From assembly GCF_024298765.1 (NCBI RefSeq), contig NZ_CP101210.1: DNA of 64,000 nucleotides; one strand, given 5' to 3'. Positions within the stretch are counted from its first letter, which is position 1. Every line of letters starts with the position of its first letter. The notes under the pieces were generated by a model that ran no database searches, was not told where the DNA came from, and saw only the letters and a program-made list of their open reading frames with translations. The position numbers and the translations under genes are program-made. The DNA is from Escherichia coli (GTDB lineage: Bacteria; Pseudomonadota; Gammaproteobacteria; Enterobacterales; Enterobacteriaceae). This document shows positions 4,059 through 57,349 of this stretch, piece by piece.

Positions 4059-4134
4059 TGGTGGGTCGTGCAGGATTCGAACCTGCGACCAATTGATTAA
4101 AAGTCAACTGCTCTACCAACTGAGCTAACGACCC
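4059..4134 (-). tRNA. lysZ: tRNA-Lys (UUU)
   Basis: Identical tRNA-Lys sequence, CCA encoded. Confidence 0.95.
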
Positions 4135-4182
4135 ATACGGGTGTTACCTGAAAGATTTCTACTCGGAACCAATGTTTAAAAT

Positions 4183-4258
4183 TGGTGGGTCGTGCAGGAT
4201 TCGAACCTGCGACCAATTGATTAAAAGTCAACTGCTCTACCAACTGAGCTAACGACCC
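4183..4258 (-). tRNA. lysY: tRNA-Lys (UUU)
   Basis: Identical tRNA-Lys sequence. Confidence 0.95.
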
Positions 4259-4261
4259 GAG

Positions 4262-4337
4262 TGGTGGGTGATGACGGGATCGAACCGCCGACCCCCTCCT
4301 TGTAAGGGAGGTGCTCTCCCAGCTGAGCTAATCACCC
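4262..4337 (-). tRNA. valZ: tRNA-Val (UAC)
   Basis: Reverse complement gives GGGTGATTAGCTCAGCTGGGAGAGCACCTCCCTTACAAGGAGGGGGTCGGCGGTTCGATCCCGTCATCACCCACCA. Confidence 0.95.
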
Positions 4338-42459: not shown

Positions 42460-43294
42460 CAGGGCAAGATTACGAAAGCCCGCTCCCCGTAAGGACTGAC
42501 GCCAGGTAGTTTCTGTCCATAGCTGCCCTTTCTATTCAAACGTGAAATCAATAAGTTCATCAGGGACATCACAAACAATATGAAGACGGGTTTCTTCTCT
42601 GCCGTGACTCTTTTCACTAATTGAGTAACTGTCGTGCTCTGGATTATTTAATTCTTTCAGCGGAAATTTTTCCTCAAAGGCTTTATTAAGCCGCCACCTG
42701 ATTTCCTTTTACAGCGAATAAATAATCACCTCCCTGTTTTTGTATCTTCTCTGCAATATCTTTCTGGCAACTCATCGCATCAGTTGTGATGATTTTTCCT
42801 TTAATATCCAGCATGTTAAGAAGTTCAGGGATAGCTGTAATTTCATTGGATTTCTCATCCGTCCTGATCTGTCCGATGACCAGACTGTGCATTGTTGAGA
42901 ACGCACTAATGACATGAATCGCTCCCCTGCGGCGACTCTTGTCATAAGAATGCCGGAGCGTTTTTCCATCAATTGCAATAACGTCTTTATCATCTGAAGA
43001 ATGGCAGTCACGCATCCAGTTAATAAAGCACTCGTGAAATTTTGAAGGACTGATACAGGATACAACTCTGGCGATGGTATCGTGAACAGGAATACCATTT
43101 TAAAAATCACCATATTGTTTTAAAAAATCGAGATGTGTTTCCCCAAAATCCTCTATATCTTCCCAACCATCTGCACCAGAAATAACGGCACAAATAGTCA
43201 ACAGTAGAATATCCGACAATTTATGTTCCACTTTTCCAGGATTGTCTGTAATCGGGAATAACAGAAATATGTTCCATCAATTTTTTAAGTACCA
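42460..43294 (-). pseudogene. H-repeat (ISAs1-family) transposase pseudogene, copy 1: internal deletion plus nonsense/frameshift
   Basis: Aligns to the intact copy at 45108-46244 but lacks about 330 bp near the 3' end, has the 1-bp insertion shared with copy 3, and a stop (ttttaaaa in place of ttttcaaa) near 43100. Confidence 0.85.
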
Positions 43295-43587: not shown

Positions 43588-44022
43588 TTATTTATGAATA
43601 TAATATAACTGAACATCATATTCATTATCACTTAAAACTATTAGTCGATCGGGAAATGTAAATGCTAATGAAAGATCATATGTTTCATTTATCGAAAACA
43701 AACTCAATATGAAATTTGAAAAATTTTCGACATGAAGAGATATGCAAACATCTCCATTATAGAATATATTGCAAAGAATATCTTTTTTCACATTCAGTGT
43801 ACTTTCAACATCTCTCGCTAGATCATTAATATTTAAAGGTAAATTGAAAACTCTCCTTTCAATAATATTATCGGTTTTATTTATTGCCATTAGCATTTCT
43901 CGATGCCACATGAAGTCATTCTTACGTAAGAATGATACATCAAAGGAAGTGACACCATTTAATTTAGAAGCATAATCTTTTGCTCTAATTAAATTTAATT
44001 TATCTTCAAGGCTAATTTTCAT
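43588..44022 (-). CDS. Putative Rhs-toxin immunity protein (orphan cassette 1)
   Basis: 144-aa low-GC ORF starting 4 nt before the stop of the orphan toxin reading frame; typical rhs-CT/rhsI arrangement. Confidence 0.6.
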   Translation of the reverse strand: MKISLEDKLNLIRAKDYASKLNGVTSFDVSFLRKNDFMWHREMLMAINKTDNIIERRVFNLPLNINDLARDVESTLNVKKDILCNIFYNGDVCISLHVENFSNFILSLFSINETYDLSLAFTFPDRLIVLSDNEYDVQLYYIHK

Positions 44023-44470
44023 AATATATATGATGATCCTTAGTTACAGGGTCATTGATCTTCTGATATCTATCACTTTTGAAATCGTATGTTCTAGGAT
44101 CAGCGCCCGGTTTAGGTTGTCCTGCATGTGCGTGAGGGCCAGGTGCCCTAGGATCTGCCGTGTGCTCGACTACAACTTTCTTACGTCCGTAGGCATCTGT
44201 ATATTCATAATATCGCCCATGAGACCCTAAATCTTCCGAATATTTATAATTTGTTTGTCCCCTTCTTCTAGGATCATTTCCAACGGTCCATTGCCTATTA
44301 GGTTGCTGTGAACGAGGTATGCCCGCAAGATCTTTTGCTTTATTTAGTGCCTGACGACGGTTTCTTAATTCACCACATTTAAGACCAAGCGGATCTATCC
44401 AGCTTACTGGATTAGGCGCGTAAGCATATAAGTTTAGCCCCCCCGCCAGCCCTATCGGGTCGGGTTACGT
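44011..44470 (-). pseudogene. Orphan rhs C-terminal toxin remnant (no start codon; in-frame stop before the DPxGL motif)
   Basis: Reverse-strand frame reads ...[46 protein letters not shown] followed by a 125-aa unique domain ending at the immunity gene; not in the ORF track because it lacks a start. Confidence 0.7.
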
Positions 44471-44634
44471 AAATGTTCCACAGTCCGAGTCGTAGTACCT
44501 CAGAAGGTTGCAGTGCAATCCCGCCTTGCGACATCAAGGCATAGTTTCAGAAAAAGTAAGGAGCAATCACCATACCCCAATTCACTGGGTGCTAAATAAT
44601 ATCTGGTAACATCCCTTACTTCAATTCTATTTCA

Positions 44635-45107: not shown

Positions 45108-46244
45108 TTACGAAAGCCCGCTCCCAGCAAGGACTGACGCCAGATAGTTTCTGTCCATGGCTGCTTTTCGCATCTTACGTCTTAACCCTGCCTTGAATAC
45201 CTTATCATTCGTCAAAATATTAATAGCGATGTGCCGTATCCCTGAAAATAATTCTGCTGCATTTCCTCTTCTTATTTTGCAGTCGTCTTCATTCATTACC
45301 ACGTCCAGACGCCAGTGCAGCTTATTCTCCACGTGCCAGTGGTTTCGGATTGCTGTGGCGAACTTCTCTGCGGTTAAATCAGCAGAACTGATATAATATC
45401 TGACCGTCATTTCTGGCTCTTTCTTTTGTTCTGCTATTATTGACCGAAAGGAGACTGCCACGCATAATTTCTTCAGACCTTTCCATTCAAACGTGAAATC
45501 AATAAGTTCATCAGGGACATCGCAAACAATATGAAGACGGATTTCTTCTCTGCCGTGACTTTTTTCACTAATTGCGTAACTGTCATGCTCTGGATTATTT
45601 AATTCTTTCAGTGGGAATTTTTCCTCAAAGGCTTTATTAAGCCGCCCCTGATTTCCTTTTACAGCGAATAAATAATCACCGCCCTGTTTTTGTATCTTCT
45701 CTGCGATATCTTTCTGGCACCCCATCGCATCAGTTGTGATAATTTTTCCTTTAATATCCAACATGTTAAGAAGTTCAGGGATAGCTGTGATCTCATTGGA
45801 TTTCTCATCCGTCCTGATCTGTCCGATGACCAGACTGTGCATTGTTGAGAACGCACTAATGACATGAATCGCTCCCCTGCGGCGACTCTTGTCATAAGAA
45901 TGCCGGAGCGTTTTTCCATCAATTGCAATAACGTCTTTATCATCTGAAGAATGGCAGTCACGCATCCAGTTAATAAAGCACTCGTGAAATTTTGCAGGAC
46001 TGATACAGGATACAACTCTGGCAATGGTATCGTGAACAGGAATACCATTTTCAAAATCACCATATTGCTTCAAAAAATCGAGATGTGTTTCCCCAAAATC
46101 CTCTATATCTTCCCAGCCTTCTGCACAAGAAATAACGGCACAAATAGTCAACAGTAGAATATCCGACAATTTATGTTCCACTTTCCAGGCTTGTCTGTAA
46201 TCGGGGATAATAGAAATATGTTCCATCAATTTTTTAAGTTCCAT
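45108..46244 (-). CDS. H-repeat-associated protein (ISAs1-family transposase), intact copy 2
   Basis: 378-aa ORF of the YhhI/YdcC/YbfD H-rpt type; element left end about 45094 (aagattacgaaagcccgc). Confidence 0.9.
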
Positions 46245-46374: not shown

Positions 46375-46725
46375 GTGATCTTTCCCTGGTTAATCATGGC
46401 TGAACACGATATTACGCCAGAAATCACCATTTCCAAAACACAGCGCCGCTATAAAGTCGGCTATGTCAGAGCCCGCCACATAAACAGCAAAACCTACATG
46501 ACCACGTACTACTCACGACACCCCAGCCTGAACCTCAAGGGCGACTGGCTGAAAGAGGCCGGATTTGATACCGGGCGGGGTGTCACGGTGAAGATTTCGG
46601 AGGGGTGCCTGACCATCATCGCTGACAGTGACGAGGTGCAGGAACTGCGGGAGGAACTTTATCAGGTTAAACAGGTGGTTAAGGGGATGCGGAGCGGGAT
46701 GTTTAGTGTGCTGAACGATAATTAA
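46375..46725 (+). CDS. SymE-like toxin (AbrB/SpoVT-fold type I toxin family), intact copy
   Basis: 116-aa ORF from GTG (or 109 aa from ATG at 46396); contains the SymE-family core LKGDWLKEAGFDTGRGVTVKISEGCLTI. Confidence 0.75.
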   Translation: MIFPWLIMAEHDITPEITISKTQRRYKVGYVRARHINSKTYMTTYYSRHPSLNLKGDWLKEAGFDTGRGVTVKISEGCLTIIADSDEVQELREELYQVKQVVKGMRSGMFSVLNDN

Positions 46726-46776: not shown

Positions 46777-47172
46777 TTATTCAGGAAATTTTCTATTTTT
46801 ATATGATGACCATAAGTGAGTGATCGACCAAGAGTTTTCCTTTCCGAGTACAAAACTTTTGGAGATTATCTCAATATCATCAGATATACGCGAAGATATT
46901 TCAGAATTATTAATCACCCTGAATGAGTATTTAAATGCCTTTTCTCGCAAGGAATCAATAAACTCAATATCATCATCCTGAAAACTTTCCTTATCTAATG
47001 AATTAAACTCACTCATCCAGCAATCATCAAACTCCGGTTCATCTCTTGAGTCTAATGCACTATCAACATTTAATGATTTAAGAAAATCAAAAAATGACGG
47101 GGTGGATAAACAGTTATCAATTTCAATTAGCTTATTATTAATCATCACATTAACCCTTGTCCTTTGAGCCAA
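46777..47172 (-). CDS. Putative Rhs-toxin immunity protein (orphan cassette 2)
   Basis: 131-aa acidic low-GC ORF immediately 3' of and overlapping the GHH-type orphan toxin. Confidence 0.6.
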   Translation of the reverse strand: MAQRTRVNVMINNKLIEIDNCLSTPSFFDFLKSLNVDSALDSRDEPEFDDCWMSEFNSLDKESFQDDDIEFIDSLREKAFKYSFRVINNSEISSRISDDIEIISKSFVLGKENSWSITHLWSSYKNRKFPE

Positions 47173-47790
47173 ACCTCTATTAAATCAACAGCCTTGGATG
47201 GTGTCACATTAGTACCTAGCGTATAAGTTCCATTTGGAGATTTAACATCAACTCTGATGTCATCTAATTTTGAATACGCTTTTCTGTAAGCATCAAATAA
47301 CTCTTTATCCGAACCAAGGAAATCACCTTGTCTTGGACCTATCACATCTCGTTCCGCATGATGTAAACGCCAGTGATTATGTTCTGGATTTTCTCCTCTA
47401 GGGAATAATGTTGGGCGAGTTTTATCAGATCGGGAAACTTCAAACGGACGTCCTTTAGATTTACGAACCGCAGGAACATGATGTCCAGATTCACTCACGC
47501 CCATACACTTCTTCGTTAATCCAAGGGGATCGATCCAGCTTAACGGATTCGGTGCATAAGCATACAGGTTTAACCCGCCTCTTAGCCCTATCGGGTCCGT
47601 TACCATGAACCGCCCGACATCCGGATCATAGTACCTGTGCAGATTGTAATGCAGCCCCGTTTCCCTGTCGAGGTACTGTCCCTGGTAGCGCAGGTTCTGC
47701 TCCACCCCGCCGTGGTCCTTCTCCTGTATCGTGTTACCCCAGACCTGATACCCCGTCTCCCACACGATTTTCCCGTCACTGTCCGTCATC
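47145..47790 (-). CDS. Orphan rhs C-terminal fragment with GHH-signature HNH/EndoVII-like nuclease toxin domain
   Basis: Core end ([38 protein letters not shown]) followed by a unique domain containing SGHHVPAV and EHNHWRLHH; 5' end truncated by the H-repeat copy 3 insertion; the track Met is fortuitous. Confidence 0.65.
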
Positions 47791-47802
47791 TCCAGGGCAA
47801 GA

Positions 47803-48940
47803 TTACGAAAGCCCGCACCCCGCAAGGACTGACGCCAGATAGTTTCTGTCCATGGCTGCTTTTCGCATCTTACGTCTTAACCCTGCCTTGAATACCTTAT
47901 CATTCGTCAAAATATTAATAGCGATGTGCCGTATCCCTGAAAATAATTCTGCTGCATTTCCTCTTCTTATTTTGCAGTCGTCTTCATTCATTACCACGTC
48001 CAGACGCCAGTGCAGCTTATTCTCCACGTGCCAGTGATTTCGGATCGCTGTGGCGAACTTTTCTGCGGTTAAATCAGCAGAACTGATATAATATCTGACC
48101 GTCATTTCTGGCTCTTTCTTTTGTTCTGCTATTATGGACCGAAAGGAGACTGCCACGCATAATTTCTTCAGTCCTTTCCATTCAAACGTGAAATCAATAA
48201 GTTCATCAGGGACATCACAAACAATATGAAGACGGGTTTCTTCTCTGCCGTGACTCTTTTCACTAATTGAGTAACTGTCGTGCTCTGGATTATTTAATTC
48301 TTTCAGCGGAAATTTTTCCTCAAAGGCTTTATTAAGCCGCCACCTGATTTCCTTTTACAGCGAATAAATAATCACCTCCCTGTTTTTGTATCTTCTCTGC
48401 AATATCTTTCTGGCAACTCATCGCATCAGTTGTGATGATTTTTCCTTTAATATCCAGCATGTTAAGAAGTTCAGGGATAGCTGTAATTTCATTGGATTTC
48501 TCATCCGTCCTGATCTGTCCGATGACCAGACTGTGCATTGTTGAGAACGCACTAATGACATGAATCGCTCCCCTGCGGCGACTCTTGTCATAAGAATGCC
48601 GGAGCGTTTTTCCATCAATTGCAATAACGTCTTTATCATCTGAAGAATGGCAGTCACGCATCCAGTTAATAAAGCACTCGTGAAATTTTGCAGGACTGAT
48701 ACAGGATACAACTCTGGCAATGGTATCGTGAACAGGAATACCATTTTCAAAATCACCATATTGCTTCAAAAAATCGAGATGTGTTTCCCCAAAATCCTCT
48801 ATATCTTCCCAGCCTTCTGCACCAGAAATAACGGCACAAATAGTCAACAGTAGAATATCCGACAATTTATGTTCCACTTTCCAGGCTTGTCTGTAATCGG
48901 GGACAATAGAAATATGTTCCATCAATTTTTTAAGTTCCAT
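47803..48940 (-). pseudogene. H-repeat (ISAs1-family) transposase pseudogene, copy 3 (frameshifted)
   Basis: Split into two ORFs (47803-48156 and 48332-48940) by a 1-bp insertion (aagccgccacctg versus aagccgcccctg in the intact copy). Confidence 0.85.
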
Positions 48941-49080
48941 TTTGTTCTCCTTAATTATGTAAGGAGTATTTGATCATGTATAAGCAATAAAAAACAGCTT
49001 TAGGTAATGAGGAATATCTCAAATCTTAAACATAAAATGCCAATTATTTAGTACAAAAAAGTAGCGTTACGTGATCTTTC

Positions 49081-49570
49081 CCTAAAACGCAGACCCAGTT
49101 GTGCATAGTACACATGGTACGCAACAGCCTGCGGTTCGTGACGTGGAAAGACTATAAAGCGGTAACCCGTGACCTGAAACAGGTTTACCGCGCGGCCACG
49201 GAAGAAGGCGTGTTGCAGGCGCTGGATGCGTTCGGGAAGGAATGGGATGCACGGTACCCGCAGATAAGTCGCAGCTGGCGGGCAAACTGACCGAATGTTG
49301 CCACCTTCTTCGTGTACCCGGAGGCGATCCGAAAGGTTATCTACACCACTAACGCAATCGAATCGCTGAATAGCGTCATCAGACATGCGATAAAGAAAAG
49401 GAAAGTGTTCCCGACAGATGAATCGGTGAAAAAAGTGGTGTGGCTGGCTATCCAGTCAGCCTCACAGAAATGGACGATGCCACTTCAGGACTAGCGGATA
49501 GCCATGAGTCGCTTTATTATCGAGTTCGGTGACCGCCTTGACGGTCACTTCTGAGAAAGGCATTTACACA
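49081..49570 (+). mobile_element. IS256-family (mutator-type) transposase gene remnant, 5'-truncated and frameshifted
   Basis: ORFs 49099-49290 and 49312-49494 encode the C-terminal part of an IS256-type transposase (...YPQISRSWRAN / IRKVIYTTNAIESLNSVIRHAIKKRKVFPTDESV...); begins abruptly at the shared leader sequence. Confidence 0.75.
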
Positions 49571-49619: not shown

Positions 49620-49946
49620 TTAATCACCCGGCTTCTCCCAACATTTTATCTTTTCTATTTCTCTCTCAATATCATCCATATCATCATCTCCAAGATCGGT
49701 ATTAAAATTTTCAGTAATAACCCTTCTTATTTCAGCCAACCGATGTGTAATATTTTTATCATCAATAAATTTAGTGGTTTCTTTAAAGTAAGAATTCAAC
49801 AATTTATCATCAATAACGTTCTGCTCTATACCATTGAAATAATACCTTGCAATATTCTTAAGTGATATCAATATGTACTCTACCTCACTTAGAATATAAA
49901 GGGCATCCTTCCCGGGTATATTAATTACATCATTGTTTTTATTCAT
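49620..49946 (-). CDS. Putative Rhs-toxin immunity protein (orphan cassette 3)
   Basis: 108-aa acidic low-GC ORF 1 nt downstream of the 601-aa orphan rhs. Confidence 0.6.
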   Translation of the reverse strand: MNKNNDVINIPGKDALYILSEVEYILISLKNIARYYFNGIEQNVIDDKLLNSYFKETTKFIDDKNITHRLAEIRRVITENFNTDLGDDDMDDIEREIEKIKCWEKPGD

Positions 49947-49947
49947 A

Positions 49948-51753
49948 TTATTTACGCCGAGTTATTTTTGCATTATCAGAAAGAACAATATCACCTTTCA
50001 CAGTCAATTCATCTATATGGTATCGAGGGTTTGTTACCCACTCTAATTGCTCGTTAGGTACATCTGTTTCCACATAATCTCTACCTTTCCCACGACCTAT
50101 TTGATATTTCGCCTCTATGTCTACTTGACTGAGTGGTTTTTTATTCGCAGGTTCCAAATATACACGACCGTTATCATGCGCCTTAATTATCCCACTTTCA
50201 GCAATCGCATTTGAACCTTTACGATTAGTATAATGCCGCACACGAGTAGTTCCATTACAGAGCTCTTTTTTTAATCCGAGTGGATCAATATATTTCAGCG
50301 GATTAGGCGCATAAGCATATAAGTTCAACCCACCCGCCAGCCCTATCGGATCCGTTACAATGAACCGCCCGACATCCGGATCATAGTACCTGTGCAGATT
50401 GTAATGCAGCCCTGTTTCCCTGTCGAGGTACTGTCCCTGGTAGCGCAGGTTCTGCTCCACCCTGCCGTGGTCCTTCTCCTGTATCGTGTTACCCCAGACC
50501 TGATACCCCGTCTCCCACACGATTTTCCCGTCACTGTCCGTCATCTCTTCCGGCGCGCCGTTCACATCCGTGTGAAAATACAGTATCCGGTTCGGGCCCT
50601 CTTTGCCCGCCTTATCCACCCGCGCCAGCGGTTCATAACTCCCCGGGTCCCTGTAGATGTACAGGCTGTCTGTTCCCTCCGGCCTGCTCTCCTGCGCCAG
50701 CCGCATTCCGTCCCATAAAAATGCCGTCCGGTTGTACGGTTTACCGTCAGGGCTGATGTGCTGTTTTTCCGTCCGCCTCCCCAGCGCATCGTACACATAC
50801 CGGTACGTTCCCCGCGCTGTCGTCACTTCCACCATCCGGTGTTCCGCATCATAACGGTAACTCTGCGTGCCGCTCCGCCCCTCCTTTTCCACCGCACGGC
50901 CAAATTCGTCGTAACGGTAGTGCACACCACGGTAAGACATCAGCCGGTTGAACGGCACCACGCTGTTTTCTGCCGTGGCCCTTTCCCCCGCGCGCCGCCC
51001 CAGCAGGTTTCCCGCCGCGTCGTACTGCCAGCTCGCCAGATACCCCTCATCCTCCGAGCGGCACGCCGTGATGCGCCCCGTGGGGTCGTAGAAGTAATCC
51101 GTTTCCCCCCGCCGGCTGTGCCGCGTCTTCAGCAGTTCATCCTCGCCACTGTAGCTGTACTGCCGGTCCGTGAACGTCTCCGGTACCACCCCGCGCATCC
51201 CGCTGTATGTCTCCCTGCGCTTCAGCCGCCCGGCGGGGTCGTAAAGCTGCCGCGTGCTCAGTCGCCCCTGACTTCTGAGCACTTCACGGTGCAGGGCGTC
51301 ACGAGTGAACTCGCTGATGACCTCCCGGTCCAGATTTATCTGCTGGAGATGGCCGCTGCCGTAGTACAGATGACGCTGCGTTCTGCCGTCCGGAAAGGTG
51401 GTGGCTGTCCGGTTGCTGAGTTCATCGTACTGATGGGTCAGGACGCCCTGCGCCGTCTCCTCAGTCAGCATCCGCCCCAGTCTGTCGTAACTGAAACGGA
51501 TAATCTCCGGTGCGTCTGTTTCCCCGGCATCCGACCGTCGGCGGCGGATTTCCAGTAACTGGTCTGCCGCATCATGGACGTATTCCGTACGGCTATCGGC
51601 TGTCTCCTTTGCCGTGAGCCGGCCCGCCGCATCACGTGCCAGCCGGTGGCGGATTTCACCGCCCCGGTCCCCGGTGAACACCACTTCCGTGACCGCGTTC
51701 AGCGCGTTGTAGCGGTACGTCTGGCGGCAGCCGTCGTGCTGCCAGCGCAGCAT
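49948..51753 (-). CDS. Orphan rhs fragment: about 480 aa of Rhs core plus a distinct C-terminal toxin domain
   Basis: YD-repeat core near-identical to the main rhs, then DPIGLAGG...DPLGL and a unique roughly 108-aa tail (KKELCNGTTRVRHYTNRKGSNAIAESGII...); rhs homology starts at DGCRQTYRY, so the track Met is fortuitous. Confidence 0.8.
   Translation of the reverse strand: MLRWQHDGCRQTYRYNALNAVTEVVFTGDRGGEIRHRLARDAAGRLTAKETADSRTEYVHDAADQLLEIRRRRSDAGETDAPEIIRFSYDRLGRMLTEETAQGVLTHQYDELSNRTATTFPDGRTQRHLYYGSGHLQQINLDREVISEFTRDALHREVLRSQGRLSTRQLYDPAGRLKRRETYSGMRGVVPETFTDRQYSYSGEDELLKTRHSRRGETDYFYDPTGRITACRSEDEGYLASWQYDAAGNLLGRRAGERATAENSVVPFNRLMSYRGVHYRYDEFGRAVEKEGRSGTQSYRYDAEHRMVEVTTARGTYRYVYDALGRRTEKQHISPDGKPYNRTAFLWDGMRLAQESRPEGTDSLYIYRDPGSYEPLARVDKAGKEGPNRILYFHTDVNGAPEEMTDSDGKIVWETGYQVWGNTIQEKDHGRVEQNLRYQGQYLDRETGLHYNLHRYYDPDVGRFIVTDPIGLAGGLNLYAYAPNPLKYIDPLGLKKELCNGTTRVRHYTNRKGSNAIAESGIIKAHDNGRVYLEPANKKPLSQVDIEAKYQIGRGKGRDYVETDVPNEQLEWVTNPRYHIDELTVKGDIVLSDNAKITRRK
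50362..51735. repeat. 1.37-kb direct repeat, copy A (orphan rhs core)
   Basis: Essentially identical to 52880-54253 (offset 2518 bp); the antisense track ORFs 50392-50718 and 50758-51558 recur identically at 52910-53236 and 53276-54076. Confidence 0.9.
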
Positions 51754-51774
51754 CTGCCCAACCGCAGCGACACG

Positions 51775-51978
51775 CCGGTGATCAAAATCAGCGCCAAATG
51801 GCTGAGAGAAGCGGGATTTGAGATCGGCACGGGCGTTACCGTGAAGATCTCGGAAGGCTGCCTGATCCTGCTTGCAGATAACAACGGAGTACAGGAACTG
51901 CGCAGGGAACTTTATCAGGTTAAACAGTCTGTTAAGGGGATGCGGAACGGGATGTTTAGTATGCTGAACGATAATTAA
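51775..51978 (+). pseudogene. SymE-like toxin gene 3' fragment
   Basis: Encodes ...IKISAKWLREAGFEIGTGVTVKISEGCLILLADNNGVQELRRELYQVKQSVKGMRNGMFSMLNDN; 5' part replaced by the orphan rhs junction. Confidence 0.7.
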
Positions 51979-52043: not shown

Positions 52044-52424
52044 CTAAATCAATCTTTTTTTTAATTCCCTTATTTCAGGAGTTAATGCAAAACTGTCTTC
52101 TAAAGATTCGTCATCCAAGGCCCAGTAATTAATAAGATCTATATGATTTTTATAATTATCAAGCAGAGTGTTGAGTGCTTTTACAATAACTTTATCTGAA
52201 GGAGGTACTCCAGAAGATAATAAATCATTACAGACATCAAGGGCTAAAGTCATTAATTCATTCTTCCCTTTTTGTGAGTAGCCATTATTTAAATATGCAG
52301 CAATATATTTACTTAACCACTCTTTAGTTCGATATTTTTCAGGCAGTTCATAAGCCCAATCTTGTGTAAACTTATCACTCACTGGTACACCAAGTTCACT
52401 ACAGATTTTATCTATTTCATTCAT
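52044..52424 (-). CDS. Putative immunity protein for the main Rhs toxin
   Basis: 126-aa low-GC ORF 18 nt downstream of the main rhs stop. Confidence 0.65.
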   Translation of the reverse strand: MNEIDKICSELGVPVSDKFTQDWAYELPEKYRTKEWLSKYIAAYLNNGYSQKGKNELMTLALDVCNDLLSSGVPPSDKVIVKALNTLLDNYKNHIDLINYWALDDESLEDSFALTPEIRELKKRLI

Positions 52425-52441
52425 ATATATCCTTCATTATT

Positions 52442-55400
52442 TTAGTTGTCGTGTGATGAATTGAATGGGAACGATGTACGTACAGAACCGTCGGGTTTTA
52501 CAACAACCCTTGCCATATCTGGAACTACCTCTGTCCCATCAGGTAAATAACCTCGACTTTTTATATTTGTAGGCAATGGCACATCATGCACACCTGGTCC
52601 TTTTTTGGCAACAGAAGCAATAAAATCAGCAGCAGAATTATCATCGAGATATTGTCCAACTTGATGACCTTTATTTCTGGCACGATCAATTAACTGATTT
52701 GGTTTCATTTTCTGTCCGTGTTCAGAAAAGGTGTGACCGTATGTAGGCTTACTTTTTGGATTTCCCCATTTGAAGTCAGATTTAGGACACAATCCAAGTG
52801 GGTCGATCCATGACAGTGGATTAGGTGCATACTGATATAAGTTTAACCCGCCTCTCAGCCCTATCGGGTCCGTTACCATGAACCGCCCGACATCCGGATC
52901 ATAGTACCTGTGCAGATTGTAATGCAGTCCCGTTTCCCTGTCGAGGTACTGTCCCTGGTAGCGCAGGTTCTGCGCCACCCCGCCGTGGTCCTTCTCCTGT
53001 ATCGTGTTACCCCAGACCTGATACCCCGTCTCCCACACGATTTTCCCGTCACTGTCCGTCATCTCTTCCGGCGCGCCGTTCACATCCGTGTGAAAATACA
53101 GTATCCGGTTCGGGCCCTCTTTGCCCGCCTTATCCACCCGCGCCAGCGGTTCATAACTCCCCGGGTCCCTGTAGATGTACAGGCTGTCTGTTCCCTCCGG
53201 CCTGCTCTCCTGCGCCAGCCGCATTCCGTCCCATAAAAATGCCGTCCGGTTGTACGGTTTACCGTCAGGGCTGATGTGCTGTTTTTCCGTCCGCCTCCCC
53301 AGCGCATCGTACACATACCGGTACGTTCCCCGCGCTGTCGTCACTTCCACCATCCGGTGTTCCGCATCATAACGGTAACTCTGCGTGCCGCTCCGCCCCT
53401 CCTTTTCCACCGCACGGCCAAATTCGTCGTAACGGTAGTGCACACCACGGTAAGACATCAGCCGGTTGAACGGCACCACGCTGTTTTCTGCCGTGGCCCT
53501 TTCCCCCGCGCGCCGCCCCAGCAGGTTTCCCGCCGCGTCGTACTGCCAGCTCGCCAGATACCCCTCATCCTCCGAGCGGCACGCCGTGATGCGCCCCGTG
53601 GGGTCGTAGAAGTAATCCGTTTCCCCCCGCCGGCTGTGCCGCGTCTTCAGCAGTTCATCCTCGCCACTGTAGCTGTACTGCCGGTCCGTGAACGTCTCCG
53701 GTACCACCCCGCGCATCCCGCTGTATGTCTCCCTGCGCTTCAGCCGCCCGGCGGGGTCGTAAAGCTGCCGCGTGCTCAGTCGCCCCTGACTTCTGAGCAC
53801 TTCACGGTGCAGGGCGTCACGAGTGAACTCGCTGATGACCTCCCGGTCCAGATTTATCTGCTGGAGATGGCCGCTGCCGTAGTACAGATGACGCTGCGTT
53901 CTGCCGTCCGGAAAGGTGGTGGCTGTCCGGTTGCTGAGTTCATCGTACTGATGGGTCAGGACGCCCTGCGCCGTCTCCTCAGTCAGCATCCGCCCCAGTC
54001 TGTCGTAACTGAAACGGATAATCTCCGGTGCGTCTGTTTCCCCGGCATCCGACCGTCGGCGGCGGATTTCCAGTAACTGGTCTGCCGCATCATGGACGTA
54101 TTCCGTACGGCTATCGGCTGTCTCCTTTGCCGTGAGCCGGCCCGCCGCATCACGTGCCAGCCGGTGGCGGATTTCACCGCCCCGGTCCCCGGTGAACACC
54201 ACTTCCGTGACCGCGTTCAGCGCGTTGTAGCGGTACGTCTGGCGGCAGCCGTCCGGATTTATCTGCTCCGCCAGACGGTCCAGCACGTCATGGCGGAACC
54301 GGTAGCTTTCTCCGTTCTCGTTTGTCAGCGTGACCAGACGCCCGTAAGCATCGTACCCGAACGCCGTCCTGCGCCCCGTCGCGTCTGTCCGGCTGCGCAC
54401 CCGGCCCTGCCCGTCCCGCTGCCAGCGCGTTATCCTCCCCATCGGGCTGGTGTACTTCACCAGCCTGCCCGCCGCGTCCGACTGGTAATTCACCGTGCGG
54501 CCGTCCGCCAGTATCACCTCCGTCAGGTGGCCGCTGTCGTCATACCCGTAGCGCGTGCTGTGGCTCTGCGCGTCTGTCATCCGTATCAGCCGCGTGCGTT
54601 CGTCGTAGAACCAGGCCGTCTGCGAGCCGGAACAGTCCGTGTGCCGCATGAGCTGCCCGTCTTCGTTCCACTGAAGGTATTTATTCCCCCCGCGCGCATC
54701 GGTTATCTGCACCACCTGGCCGTGGCGGTCATACTGATACCGGGTGTTCTGCTGCAGCGGGTCGGTCACCGCAAGAAGATTGCCGCGTTCATCGTACTCA
54801 CAGCACCAGCTGTTCCCCGCCGCGTCCACCTCCGTTTCCGGCTGGTGCCACACCGGGTGCCACTGTGTCTGTGCCACCCGCCCCAGCGGGTCGTGCGTCT
54901 CCGTGATATGCCCCTGCCGGTCATACACATAGCGCCATTTGCCGCCCTGCGCATCGGTCATTCCCAGTAACAGCCGTTCTTCGTCGCTCCAGCGGAACGT
55001 CGTCACCTGCCCGGCTTCGTCCTGGTACGCCGTCACCTGATTCTGCGCGTCCCACTGATGATAACGCGTGCGCCCCAGCCCGTCCGTCACGCACAGCCTG
55101 CGTGACGCCAGGCTCCACGCCAGCCGGTACTGTTCACCGCTGTCCGTGTGGTGCCCCGTCACCCGCCACGCTGCGTCATCCGGGCCTTCATACCAGCTCC
55201 ACTGGTAATAATACCCTTCGCCGCCCGGCTGGCGGTGCAGGGTCATGCAGTGGTTTTCGTCGTAAGCAAACTCGCGCAGCAGGTGTCCCGTGCTGTCGTA
55301 CACGCCGTTCAGGTCGCCGGCCTCGTCATAGCGGTAACGACGCAGCAGTAAAGGAGCCGTCTCAGGGAAATGCTGATAAATCTGTGTCACCCGCCGGGGA

Positions 55401-57100
55401 TGCGCCGCCAGTTCATAATGCAGACGGATGCACGGACGCTGCTGTTCACCGCTGATTTGCGTGATGCGCCCCAGCTCGTCGTAGTACAGATTCAGACAGT
55501 TGCTGTTGCGGTCGCCCAGCATTTTCAGCCGCTGGCGCTGCGGGTGATGCGGGTCGGCTTCAAACAGAAAAAACTGCCCGTCATCGCTGCTGATAAGCCA
55601 GTGCCCCTGCTCACCCCGCCTTACCGCCAGTCCTTCGCCGGGGCTGTAAAACCCGCTCCCCGGCAGCACGGCCTCCATATCCAGGCGTCGCCCCATGCCC
55701 GACACAAAGGTCATGCAGTTTTCGTCAGCAGTACCCGGCGTGCGCCCGAGGCTGACTTCATACATCACGCTCCAGCCCTGCCCGAACATCCCTTCCGTGC
55801 GGTCGTCACGACTGCTGTACACGCGCTGCCAGTCCAGCGGAAAGTGGCCCGGCAGACTGAAATCGAAGTCATCGTCATCGGCCAGATATTTGGCTCCGGT
55901 GGCGGCATTGACCGGATGCGGAAGGGCACTGATGGCCTTCTGCGTCATCACCCCCATCCCGACACTGGCAGCAAAACAGGCGATTTTAGAAAGCATTTTG
56001 CCCGGGCGAAGAAACATCAGCGCCACGGTTGCCACCAGGGTTATCTGCGACCTGCCGCTTCTGATATCCCTGACCACCAGTAACGGACCGCCAATGCGGA
56101 CATCCGGTGACACAAACGCCCCGTTCCCCGGCTCATTCACCACCCTGGCCTCGCAGGTGCAGCGTGCCCCGCTGCGTGCCGCCGGCTGGCTGTTGATACG
56201 CACATCCCGCGCGCCTTCCGCGATATATTCCGCTGCGGGCGGTTCATCATCGCCTTTGAACAGATTACTGATGCTGCCAATAACCGCATTCACTCCCTGA
56301 AAGGCGGTTTCCAGCATACCGTCCGGACTCAGCAGGTTAAGGGCCGTTCCCAGGGGGTCATCCAGAAAGGCGGCTTTTTTTTGTGCGAGAAACTGCGTCA
56401 GTGAGGAGGGATGTTTATGGCAGTCGATTTTATCGTCAGGGGTCGGGGTGGAGCCCGGGGCCGCACTGGCCACGGTGGGCTGCCATAGTTCCGACACAAA
56501 ATGTGTCACGCCATCCACCATTTCAGAACGCCCTTCTTCCGTACTGAGCTGGTCGTGCAGCGCCCGGGACATCAGCACAGGCCCTGTCACCGGGTTAACC
56601 GCCAGGGCTATGGCCCCCGCCATTTCCAGATATTCCCCGGCCACATCCAGGAACGTTCTGGCATCCTCCTGACGCTGCGCTTCTTCCTGTTCCGCCTTCG
56701 CCTGCGCCTCCTGCGCCTCAATGTCCTGCCGCGATGCCGCAGTCGCCGCGGCCCGCGCGGCAGGTTTGCTGTTGATCCATGTGTCGCCAGAGCCGGTGAG
56801 GATGTAACCTTCAATCTGAGGCGGGAAAAGCATATTTGCGAGGTCTGAACAGACTTCGCTGACCGTGTCTGTCACGCCGGTGTACACCATCGCCACACCC
56901 GCCACAAAACCGGTCAGCACGACGGCCGTGCACCCCATCGTGATCCCCACTGACGCCGCCAGTAACGAGGTTGTGCCGACAATGAGGGCATCAATAACGA
57001 CATTTGCGGCCACCTCCAGCACCGCCCCCAGCACATCTGCCATAAACGACGTATGCAGCAGGGCATCACCCTGCCTTGCCGCCCAGAATGCCTCTTCCAT
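52442..57100 (-). CDS. Full-length Rhs polymorphic toxin with N-terminal prePAAR-like motif and hydrophobic segment (T6SS effector-like), YD-repeat shell and variable C-terminal toxin domain
   Basis: 1552-aa ORF; N-terminus MEEAFWAARQGDALLH fits AARxxDxxxH, followed by about 55 hydrophobic residues and PAAR-containing segments; YD repeats; core ends PxxxxDPxGL (WIDPLGL) about 115 aa before the stop. Confidence 0.85.
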   Translation of the reverse strand: MEEAFWAARQGDALLHTSFMADVLGAVLEVAANVVIDALIVGTTSLLAASVGITMGCTAVVLTGFVAGVAMVYTGVTDTVSEVCSDLANMLFPPQIEGYILTGSGDTWINSKPAARAAATAASRQDIEAQEAQAKAEQEEAQRQEDARTFLDVAGEYLEMAGAIALAVNPVTGPVLMSRALHDQLSTEEGRSEMVDGVTHFVSELWQPTVASAAPGSTPTPDDKIDCHKHPSSLTQFLAQKKAAFLDDPLGTALNLLSPDGMLETAFQGVNAVIGSISNLFKGDDEPPAAEYIAEGARDVRINSQPAARSGARCTCEARVVNEPGNGAFVSPDVRIGGPLLVVRDIRSGRSQITLVATVALMFLRPGKMLSKIACFAASVGMGVMTQKAISALPHPVNAATGAKYLADDDDFDFSLPGHFPLDWQRVYSSRDDRTEGMFGQGWSVMYEVSLGRTPGTADENCMTFVSGMGRRLDMEAVLPGSGFYSPGEGLAVRRGEQGHWLISSDDGQFFLFEADPHHPQRQRLKMLGDRNSNCLNLYYDELGRITQISGEQQRPCIRLHYELAAHPRRVTQIYQHFPETAPLLLRRYRYDEAGDLNGVYDSTGHLLREFAYDENHCMTLHRQPGGEGYYYQWSWYEGPDDAAWRVTGHHTDSGEQYRLAWSLASRRLCVTDGLGRTRYHQWDAQNQVTAYQDEAGQVTTFRWSDEERLLLGMTDAQGGKWRYVYDRQGHITETHDPLGRVAQTQWHPVWHQPETEVDAAGNSWCCEYDERGNLLAVTDPLQQNTRYQYDRHGQVVQITDARGGNKYLQWNEDGQLMRHTDCSGSQTAWFYDERTRLIRMTDAQSHSTRYGYDDSGHLTEVILADGRTVNYQSDAAGRLVKYTSPMGRITRWQRDGQGRVRSRTDATGRRTAFGYDAYGRLVTLTNENGESYRFRHDVLDRLAEQINPDGCRQTYRYNALNAVTEVVFTGDRGGEIRHRLARDAAGRLTAKETADSRTEYVHDAADQLLEIRRRRSDAGETDAPEIIRFSYDRLGRMLTEETAQGVLTHQYDELSNRTATTFPDGRTQRHLYYGSGHLQQINLDREVISEFTRDALHREVLRSQGRLSTRQLYDPAGRLKRRETYSGMRGVVPETFTDRQYSYSGEDELLKTRHSRRGETDYFYDPTGRITACRSEDEGYLASWQYDAAGNLLGRRAGERATAENSVVPFNRLMSYRGVHYRYDEFGRAVEKEGRSGTQSYRYDAEHRMVEVTTARGTYRYVYDALGRRTEKQHISPDGKPYNRTAFLWDGMRLAQESRPEGTDSLYIYRDPGSYEPLARVDKAGKEGPNRILYFHTDVNGAPEEMTDSDGKIVWETGYQVWGNTIQEKDHGGVAQNLRYQGQYLDRETGLHYNLHRYYDPDVGRFMVTDPIGLRGGLNLYQYAPNPLSWIDPLGLCPKSDFKWGNPKSKPTYGHTFSEHGQKMKPNQLIDRARNKGHQVGQYLDDNSAADFIASVAKKGPGVHDVPLPTNIKSRGYLPDGTEVVPDMARVVVKPDGSVRTSFPFNSSHDN
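52880..54253. repeat. 1.37-kb direct repeat, copy B (main rhs core)
   Basis: Essentially identical to 50362-51735. Confidence 0.9.
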
Positions 57101-57118: not shown

Positions 57119-57349
57119 TTAATTCGTCCCGGCTTCCTGCCGCATCCTGAAGCGCAGATTCTTTTTAATTTCAGCCCAGCGCGTCATATCAGCCGGGGTC
57201 AGCGGTGTGGTTCGGGCGTAGGTGAAGGCCATCATGACCCGCTCACCCGGCAATACAAATGCCACCTGACACTGGTACACCTGCTCGTTACCCCGGAGAA
57301 ACTGGCTCTGTATTTGCAAACCGCCTCATTGAGATAATATTCCGTCATA
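57119..57349 (-). pseudogene. Possible degenerate Eag-type (DUF1795-like) chaperone gene remnant upstream of rhs
   Basis: ATG at 57347-57349 opens MTEYYLNEAV... (resembles the DUF1795 N-terminus) but stops after 38 codons; a second frame continues 66 codons to 57119; total length is about half that of an intact Eag gene. Confidence 0.25.

Follow-up and report, generated by a model that had tools for sequence, protein, structure and literature searches.

A predicted Tox-ART-HYD1 toxin domain and its probable immunity gene on an orphan rhs fragment at the rhsC locus of Escherichia coli

The stretch of Escherichia coli DNA analysed here (64,000 nucleotides of contig NZ_CP101210.1, assembly GCF_024298765.1, hereafter the window) contains on its minus strand a 601-aa open reading frame (ORF, 49948-51753). 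This ORF is an orphan rhs fragment with a C-terminal tail behind a DPLGL motif, and it is directly followed by an ORF of 108 aa. Based on sequence and predicted structure we assign the tail to the Tox-ART-HYD1 group, i.e. it appears to be an intact, minimal ADP-ribosyltransferase (ART) toxin domain of the H-Y-[EDQ] clade, and we are highly confident that the tail and the 108-aa ORF represent an ART-HYD1 toxin-immunity pair. In the broader reading, which we consider probable, the intact toxin domain and a dedicated immunity gene form an orphan cassette at the rhsC position, where a full-length PAAR-Rhs gene lies upstream of it, and the toxin would modify an essential target in neighbouring cells, possibly as Tre23 from Photorhabdus laumondii does. 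With somewhat less assurance we favour ADP-ribosyl transfer to a macromolecule as the chemistry of the toxin.

The earlier note on this DNA had left the tail unclassified, as no motif could be assigned to it. This is not correct: the tail matches the Pfam profile PF15633 (Tox-ART-HYD1) over the full length of the profile (positions 1-97 of 97, E 7e-15, 55.9 bits at a cut-off of 25), and the identical ORF is listed in RefSeq (WP_024190186.1) under the name "HYD1 signature containing ADP-ribosyltransferase". All close homologues of the tail also carry a precomputed PF15633 assignment. Tox-ART-HYD1 was defined in 2012 by Zhang et al., who placed it in the H-Y-E clade of ARTs and gave H,[RK],[FY],[DE] as its signature (PMC3482391). 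NCBIfam has no model for the tail or for the downstream 108-aa protein. A role of the toxin/108-aa pair in anti-phage defence was rejected, because there is no PADLOC match for either protein.

Structure prediction, which the earlier note had proposed as a check, resulted in a confident ADP-ribosyltransferase fold. The AlphaFold2 model of the tail, built with 37 homologues, reaches a predicted local distance difference test score (pLDDT) of 88.9 and a predicted template modelling score (pTM) of 0.78; its predicted strands comprise residues 8-15, 36-41, 65-72, 76-80, 87-92 and 102-104, and the fold is closest to that of the Rhs toxin TreTu. An alignment of 80 diverse representatives of the family shows no variation at H13, T15 and E88 and only Y or F at position 38; R12, Y14, V37, E68, N81 and G93 are nearly invariant. 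The toxin ORF in the window is intact and keeps every family-conserved residue. R12 and H13 are located in strand b1 of the predicted fold, Y38 in b2 and E88 in b5. Catalytic triads of ARTs are known to sit on b1, b2 and b5 (PMC9825190; PMC13285283), and the placement and conservation of H13, Y38 and E88 therefore fit both the HYD1 signature and the triad rule.

A profile search among 1.84 billion representative proteins detected 293 clusters at E <= 1e-3, 217 of them at E <= 1e-10. In a motif scan of genomes, one per species, we found 48 toxin loci, and in the 47 of these with a match spanning most of the tail the identity is between 54 and 77%. The loci derive from a wide range of organisms, including Enterobacterales, Pseudomonas, Burkholderia, Snodgrassella, Acinetobacter, Variovorax, Clostridium, Myxococcales, Sedimentisphaerales and Akkermansia. 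The HYD1 domain is always C-terminal on its carrier protein. It is found directly after DPxGL in Rhs proteins from Photorhabdus, Snodgrassella, Burkholderia, Acinetobacter and Pseudomonas, so that the tail is present at this boundary in several genera, whereas its absence there would have spoken against the reading of the earlier note (for example DPWGL/AKEDCTRVRHY in Photorhabdus thracensis, with the slash at the boundary). Other carriers possess PT-HINT or PT-TG pre-toxin domains or are giant proteins of the SpvB/TcdB type. E. coli harbours a second HYD1 allele (P0001), which is 79% identical to the tail; its ends match the tail in the window and its middle resembles a Kluyvera protein (P0002), a pattern that suggests mosaic recombination inside the toxin domain. 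Candidates from the Salmonella pathogenicity island 6 (SPI-6) Rhs-Tox-ART-HYD1 group have the same Pfam domain on PAAR-Rhs as well as on Rhs ORFs of 194-959 aa that are truncated or orphan, and their immunity genes are unannotated ('No/No') (PMC10469887, PMC11669294). The Salmonella HYD1 tips found in our searches differ from the tail, to which they are about 36% identical (P0280), and therefore belong to another subfamily.

The second half of the argument concerns the 108-aa protein, which the earlier note had described as acidic and immunity-like. This description is supported. A homologue of 24-59% identity is encoded directly after the toxin in 47 of the 48 loci, which cover Proteobacteria, Clostridia, Myxococcales and Planctomycetota. 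In loci with an unambiguous start codon, the homologue begins between 1 nt inside the toxin stop codon and 18 nt beyond it. Because of this arrangement in several phyla we regard the 108-aa ORF as the putative cognate immunity protein, and the linkage across phyla and carrier types is the strongest non-experimental evidence for such a role. The isoelectric points (pI) of the two proteins are far apart, with 9.41 for the tail (family median 9.8) and 4.64 for the immunity protein (family median 4.7). Within the immunity family N5, L29, I32, T57, F60-I61-D62, L70, R74, F81 and a G-D-x-MDD-x-ER motif are invariant, the latter being LGDDDMDDIER in the window copy. The single locus lacking a detectable immunity homologue downstream is L044 (an Akkermansia muciniphila metagenome-assembled genome), with a HINT-HYD1 toxin 55% identical to the tail. 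In Pseudomonas loci (L032, L033, L034, L037, L039, L040, L043, L045, L046) the immunity homologue has about 210 aa, including an additional C-terminal domain of about 100 aa which is absent from the E. coli protein.

The immunity protein has no Pfam family and no sequence relative in the PDB, all matches being below threshold, and none of 36 immunity homologues gave a Pfam match above threshold. Matches to FAM193_C, HSCB_C and VPS28 were dismissed as sub-threshold chance matches. Zhang et al. list Imm-My6CBD as an immunity family for Tox-ART-HYD1, an alpha+beta family related to the myosin VI cargo-binding domain (PMC3482391). We rejected membership of the 108-aa protein in this family, since it has no Pfam match and is predicted to be all-alpha with four helices. 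Co-folding of the tail with its putative immunity protein, likewise proposed in the earlier note, was carried out as a single chain of toxin, GS linker and immunity protein in AlphaFold2, with an alignment in which the toxin and immunity sequences of 34 adjacent gene pairs were matched as they occur in nature. The fused model has a pLDDT of 84.1 and a pTM of 0.72; both domains are confident and the linker alone is disordered. The immunity part consists of four helices, and its acidic motif is located in a loop.

The earlier note spoke of a 601-aa orphan rhs. The ORF and its C-terminal tail are exactly as described, and the position of the tail after DPLGL is confirmed (107 aa, Table 1), but the ORF itself is better regarded as a truncated pseudogene fragment. 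Its core (50273-51735) is 98.4% identical over 1463 nt to the main rhs gene upstream (52791-54253); this homology begins at codon 7 of the 601-aa ORF and ends 2 nt ahead of the first tail codon. The ATG and the first six codons are fortuitous, and the fragment is 5'-truncated and not a complete gene. The equivalent stretch in E. coli strain 104 is annotated by RefSeq as an rhs pseudogene with a missing N-terminus. A GC-rich core combined with an AT-rich tip is the classic pattern of Rhs genes. The G+C content, 0.58-0.67 over the core, falls to 0.29-0.42 in the tail and the ORF behind it, which fits this pattern, and the pattern of tail plus downstream ORF lies far beyond chance. The element has the features of an orphan Rhs toxin cassette: its truncated core is shared with the main rhs, the tip behind DPxGL is a different one, and an immunity gene is linked to it.

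Table 1. Features of the orphan cassette and of the neighbouring main rhs gene in the window.
Feature	Position	Strand	Remarks
Probable cognate immunity gene	49620..49946	-	108 aa, acidic, predicted all-alpha, starts 1 nt past the toxin stop
Tox-ART-HYD1 toxin domain (predicted)	49948..50271	-	107 codons 50271-49951 plus TAA stop 49950-49948; predicted catalytic H13, Y38, E88
DPLGL motif, Rhs C-terminal aspartyl autocleavage site	50272..50286	-	read from sequence
5'-truncated orphan rhs core fragment, tip carrier	50272..51753	-	RHS_repeat, RHS and Rhs_assc_core model matches
Presumed immunity gene of the main Rhs tip	52044..52424	-	126 aa; by position directly after main rhs; no Pfam match
Full-length main PAAR-Rhs with a different tip	52442..57100	-	1552 aa; N-terminal part matches PAAR_motif and DUF6531
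Truncated EagR/DcrB (DUF1795) chaperone fragment	57119..57319	-	Pfam DcrB positions 77-126 of 127 only, last ~50 residues

Since the orphan has neither PAAR nor an N-terminal region, it is not deliverable as it stands, and the main PAAR-Rhs is the likely recombination partner and delivery vehicle of the orphan tip. Comparing strains gives a natural series of arrangements. The tip and immunity module is present in 72 of 5426 complete E. coli genomes (about 1.3%), always chromosomal, in single copy and at least 98.6% identical. Strain 104 shows the same arrangement as the window. In strains 2014C-3338 and CS18F, the HYD1 tip and the immunity gene are located in frame directly on a full-length rhs, and these strains lack the main tip with its immunity gene as well as the SymE-like gene and the duplicated core. 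Only 23 positions distinguish the orphan core from the main rhs, and all of them are close to the 3' end (positions 4120-4305 of the main coding sequence); the fused genes of both strains carry all 23 orphan-type single-nucleotide polymorphisms. Such genes are either the product expected from recombination of main and orphan rhs or an ancestral form that existed before the HYD1 tip was displaced by a new one. In strain 06-00048 the tip and the immunity gene are kept and no rhs core is left.

A comparable situation is known from Salmonella LT2, where a 5'-truncated orphan fragment with its own tip and immunity gene is found downstream of a main rhs that shares its core (PMC3967940, PMC7043789). 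There the tip can be fused to the main gene by recombination, and the activation of an orphan Rhs tip in this way was demonstrated by Koskiniemi et al. (PMC3967940); in E. coli recombination is inferred here from the comparison of strains. The Salmonella LT2 orphan differs in that it carries a different toxin family.

For the activity, Tre23 is the only characterised HYD1 member, and NAD+-dependent ADP-ribosyltransferase activity has been shown for Tre23 only. It is the tip of Rhs1 from P. laumondii and is deployed through a type VI secretion system (T6SS) via VgrG and EagR; in the cytoplasm of E. coli it is toxic unless H8 or Y33 is mutated, and it halts translation only in the presence of NAD+, ADP-ribosylating helix 44 of 23S rRNA (nucleotides ~1095-1098) in the GTPase-associated centre (PMC8661411). 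Its immunity protein Tri23 neutralises Tre23 by binding and does not reverse the adduct (PMC8661411). Rhs1 encapsulates Tre23, and aspartyl autocleavage at the second DPLGL motif (D1338) frees the toxin (PMC8636562). The system Tre23/Tri23 (Rhs1, plu0353/plu0352) resembles the E. coli pair in the PF15633 assignment, in the C-terminal tip on a prePAAR/PAAR Rhs with release at DPLGL, in the EagR gene upstream and in the small immunity gene downstream. The histidine and tyrosine are spaced by 25 residues in both, with H8, Y9 and Y33 of Tre23 corresponding to H13, Y14 and Y38 of the tail. On the other hand, the window copy is an orphan outside any T6SS cluster with a truncated EagR, and the toxin region in the PDB chain of Tre23 seems longer (about 130 aa including tags) than the 107-aa tail.

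We propose that homologous recombination across the shared core would place the HYD1 tip on the main Rhs, whose shell would encapsulate the toxin. After type VI secretion into a neighbouring cell, autocleavage at DPLGL would free the toxin, which would then use NAD+ to ADP-ribosylate an essential target. By analogy to Tre23 the most likely target would be RNA of the translation machinery, i.e. helix 44 of 23S rRNA in the GTPase-associated centre, and the acidic immunity protein would bind the basic toxin and block its activity. That the target is indeed the Tre23 site is a tentative suggestion, which we hold with reservation.

Several observations weigh against this reading or parts of it. Neither the tail alone nor the family profiles find Tre23 in the PDB chain 7pq5_L (no match at E <= 10). 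The distance between the tail and Tre23 makes it a weak inference to carry the target over. An alignment reaching 41-60 residues into the toxin part of the chain was obtained only with the Rhs core end as an anchor, and it was lost with a shorter anchor. As to the Tre23 sequence itself, no P. laumondii protein occurs among the 48 motif-scan loci or among the best 120 of the named-protein profile search, and the search of the 1.84 billion representative proteins returned no protein with the Tre23 numbering. ART folds can also be NADases, as known for Tne5 (PMC13285283). The pTM of the fused model suggests a defined mutual arrangement of toxin and immunity protein, a suggestion which is based on pTM and pLDDT and not on the interface. 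With respect to deployment, no VgrG or T6SS genes were seen adjoining the locus, and together with the truncated EagR this makes delivery in this strain doubtful. There is no convincing internal promoter in the rhs fragment either, as 8 promoter-like sites compare to 4.3 +/- 2.0 expected. Finally, the fused rhs-HYD1 genes of 2014C-3338 and CS18F are annotated as frameshifted, due to one 1-nt deletion in one strain and seven 1-nt insertions in the other. Because these indels differ between the two strains and look like assembly errors, the frameshifts are probably sequencing errors, and we rejected a real inactivation of the fused genes.

The distance to Tre23 leaves room for an ART-fold toxin with the same immunity logic and another chemistry or target, which might be a protein (EF-Tu as for TreTu, or FtsZ as for Tre1), another RNA or DNA, or NAD(P)+ that is hydrolysed. 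TreTu/TriTu, the Rhs tip of STM0291 from Salmonella Typhimurium and its immunity protein (PDB 7zhl, 7zhm), is the closest in fold, but identity to the tail is only 16-20%. It differs by its non-canonical R-H-W pocket and modifies D21 of EF-Tu (PMC9825190). TriTu forms a beta-sheet lid, in contrast to the all-alpha structure predicted for the immunity protein of the window. We consider another chemistry or target somewhat unlikely, since the canonical H-Y-E triad is invariant in the family, whereas the pockets of TreTu and Tne5 are non-canonical, and since the tail and Tre23 are both assigned to PF15633 (PMC8661411). The combination of a basic toxin and an acidic immunity protein also fits a nucleic-acid substrate, albeit weakly. 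A more specific and still less likely suggestion concerns the tightly conserved subfamily to which the tail belongs, whose members in E. coli, Clostridium, Myxococcales and Akkermansia share 54-79% identity, and its all-alpha immunity family with the acidic motif. The subfamily may be functionally distinct from Tre23. It could then act on a different, universally conserved RNA or protein site, with the acidic loop of the immunity protein plugging the active cleft as a mimic of the substrate (phosphate backbone). If true, this would represent a new toxin-target pair together with a new immunity family.

Another reading, to which we give about the same limited credit as to a change of chemistry, is that the toxin half is a silent relic in this strain and that the immunity gene is kept as an orphan immunity against HYD1 toxins of neighbours. 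The orphan has neither a genuine start nor the N-terminal region needed for delivery, EagR is truncated, insertion sequence (IS) fragments are found on the flanks of the module, and the tip persists in strain 06-00048 without any rhs core, all of which would be expected from a relic. However, the toxin ORF is intact with all family-invariant residues kept, and the module shows the high identity mentioned above in all 72 E. coli genomes carrying it. Moreover, toxin and immunity gene have been kept together, and the core is similar enough to the main rhs that recombination is still possible.

A use by the cell itself is improbable; in this case a promoter within the rhs fragment would drive tip and immunity gene, which would regulate the growth of the cell as a toxin-antitoxin module of type II. 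Such a function was shown for main and orphan Rhs tips of Salmonella (PMC7043789), promoter-like sites are located on the minus strand at 50426-50398 and 50215-50186, and the NCBI annotation pipeline PGAP lists a 97-aa ORF of its own that starts at an internal GTG. Against this, the promoter-like sites are not enriched over expectation and there is no in-frame ATG between them and the domain. A chance ORF extension after the rhs core with no functional domain can practically be dismissed in view of the 293 representative clusters, the identity retained in 47 loci across phyla, the confident fold prediction and the conserved immunity partner.

The window is part of the E. coli chromosome, and the locus between kdp/ybfA and ybgA/phrB corresponds to the rhsC position. 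On the minus strand the EagR/DcrB fragment is followed by the full-length PAAR-Rhs with its small ORF, the orphan, IS remnants, a second orphan with a small ORF, and further remnants. RefSeq lists the EagR/DcrB fragment as 'DcrB-related protein, missing N-terminus', and the same truncation is annotated in three other strains. The main Rhs is prePAAR-like ('AARQGDALLH'), and the truncation of EagR upstream of it raises doubt over its loading on the T6SS. Its tip (52442-52789, minus strand) comprises 115 aa after DPLGL ('CPKSDFKWGNPKSKPTYGHTFSEHGQ...'). As neither this tip nor the following 126-aa ORF has a Pfam match, the main tip, unlike the HYD1 tail, is really unclassified as far as its sequence is concerned. 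The second orphan rhs fragment (47145-47825, minus strand) ends in a 123-aa tip ('SGHHVPAV...HNHWRLHHAER') and is followed by a 131-aa ORF (46777-47172, minus strand). The tip is reminiscent of GHH/HNH-type nuclease toxins; neither tip nor ORF gave a Pfam match at E <= 0.01.

ORFs of the SymE_toxin family are located on the opposite strand after each rhs tip-immunity module (51574-51978 and 46375-46725 on the plus strand, in addition to 46467-46595 on the minus strand). The Rfam small RNA isrA (RF01385, 117.6 bits) lies antisense to the second SymE_toxin ORF. In P. thracensis a SymE_toxin gene is also found after the Rhs-HYD1-immunity pair (L002, 8451-8771), and this type I toxin-antitoxin-like element therefore seems to travel with Rhs tip cassettes. 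Between the rhs cassettes, ORFs at 45108-46244, 47803-48156 plus 48332-48940, 42686-43015 and 49048-49500 represent one intact ISAs1/H-repeat transposase, split or fragmentary copies and another transposase fragment. Two further minus-strand stretches (~44012-44455 and 43588-44022) are preceded by a short rhs core-end remnant (44409-44517); RefSeq names their equivalents in strain 104 'HNH/endonuclease VII fold putative polymorphic toxin' and hypothetical protein, respectively. This would be a third, core-less tip cassette.

Taken as a member of its family, the tip is an ordinary example of the known Tox-ART-HYD1 group on an orphan Rhs cassette. The family has been known since 2012 and has one well-studied member, and the tip is already named as such in public annotation. 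What is new here is modest: the tip is distant from Tre23, its immunity family has no name so far, and E. coli strains show a natural series of arrangements. These natural strain variants offer the same tip as an orphan, as the primary tip of an Rhs protein and as a core-less remnant. The HYD1 subfamily is very widely conserved and its partner immunity family has neither a Pfam model nor a solved relative. If the target is the same as that of Tre23, the Tre23 mechanism would be extended to E. coli and many other phyla; if it differs, the toxin would point to a new target of antibacterial ADP-ribosylation.

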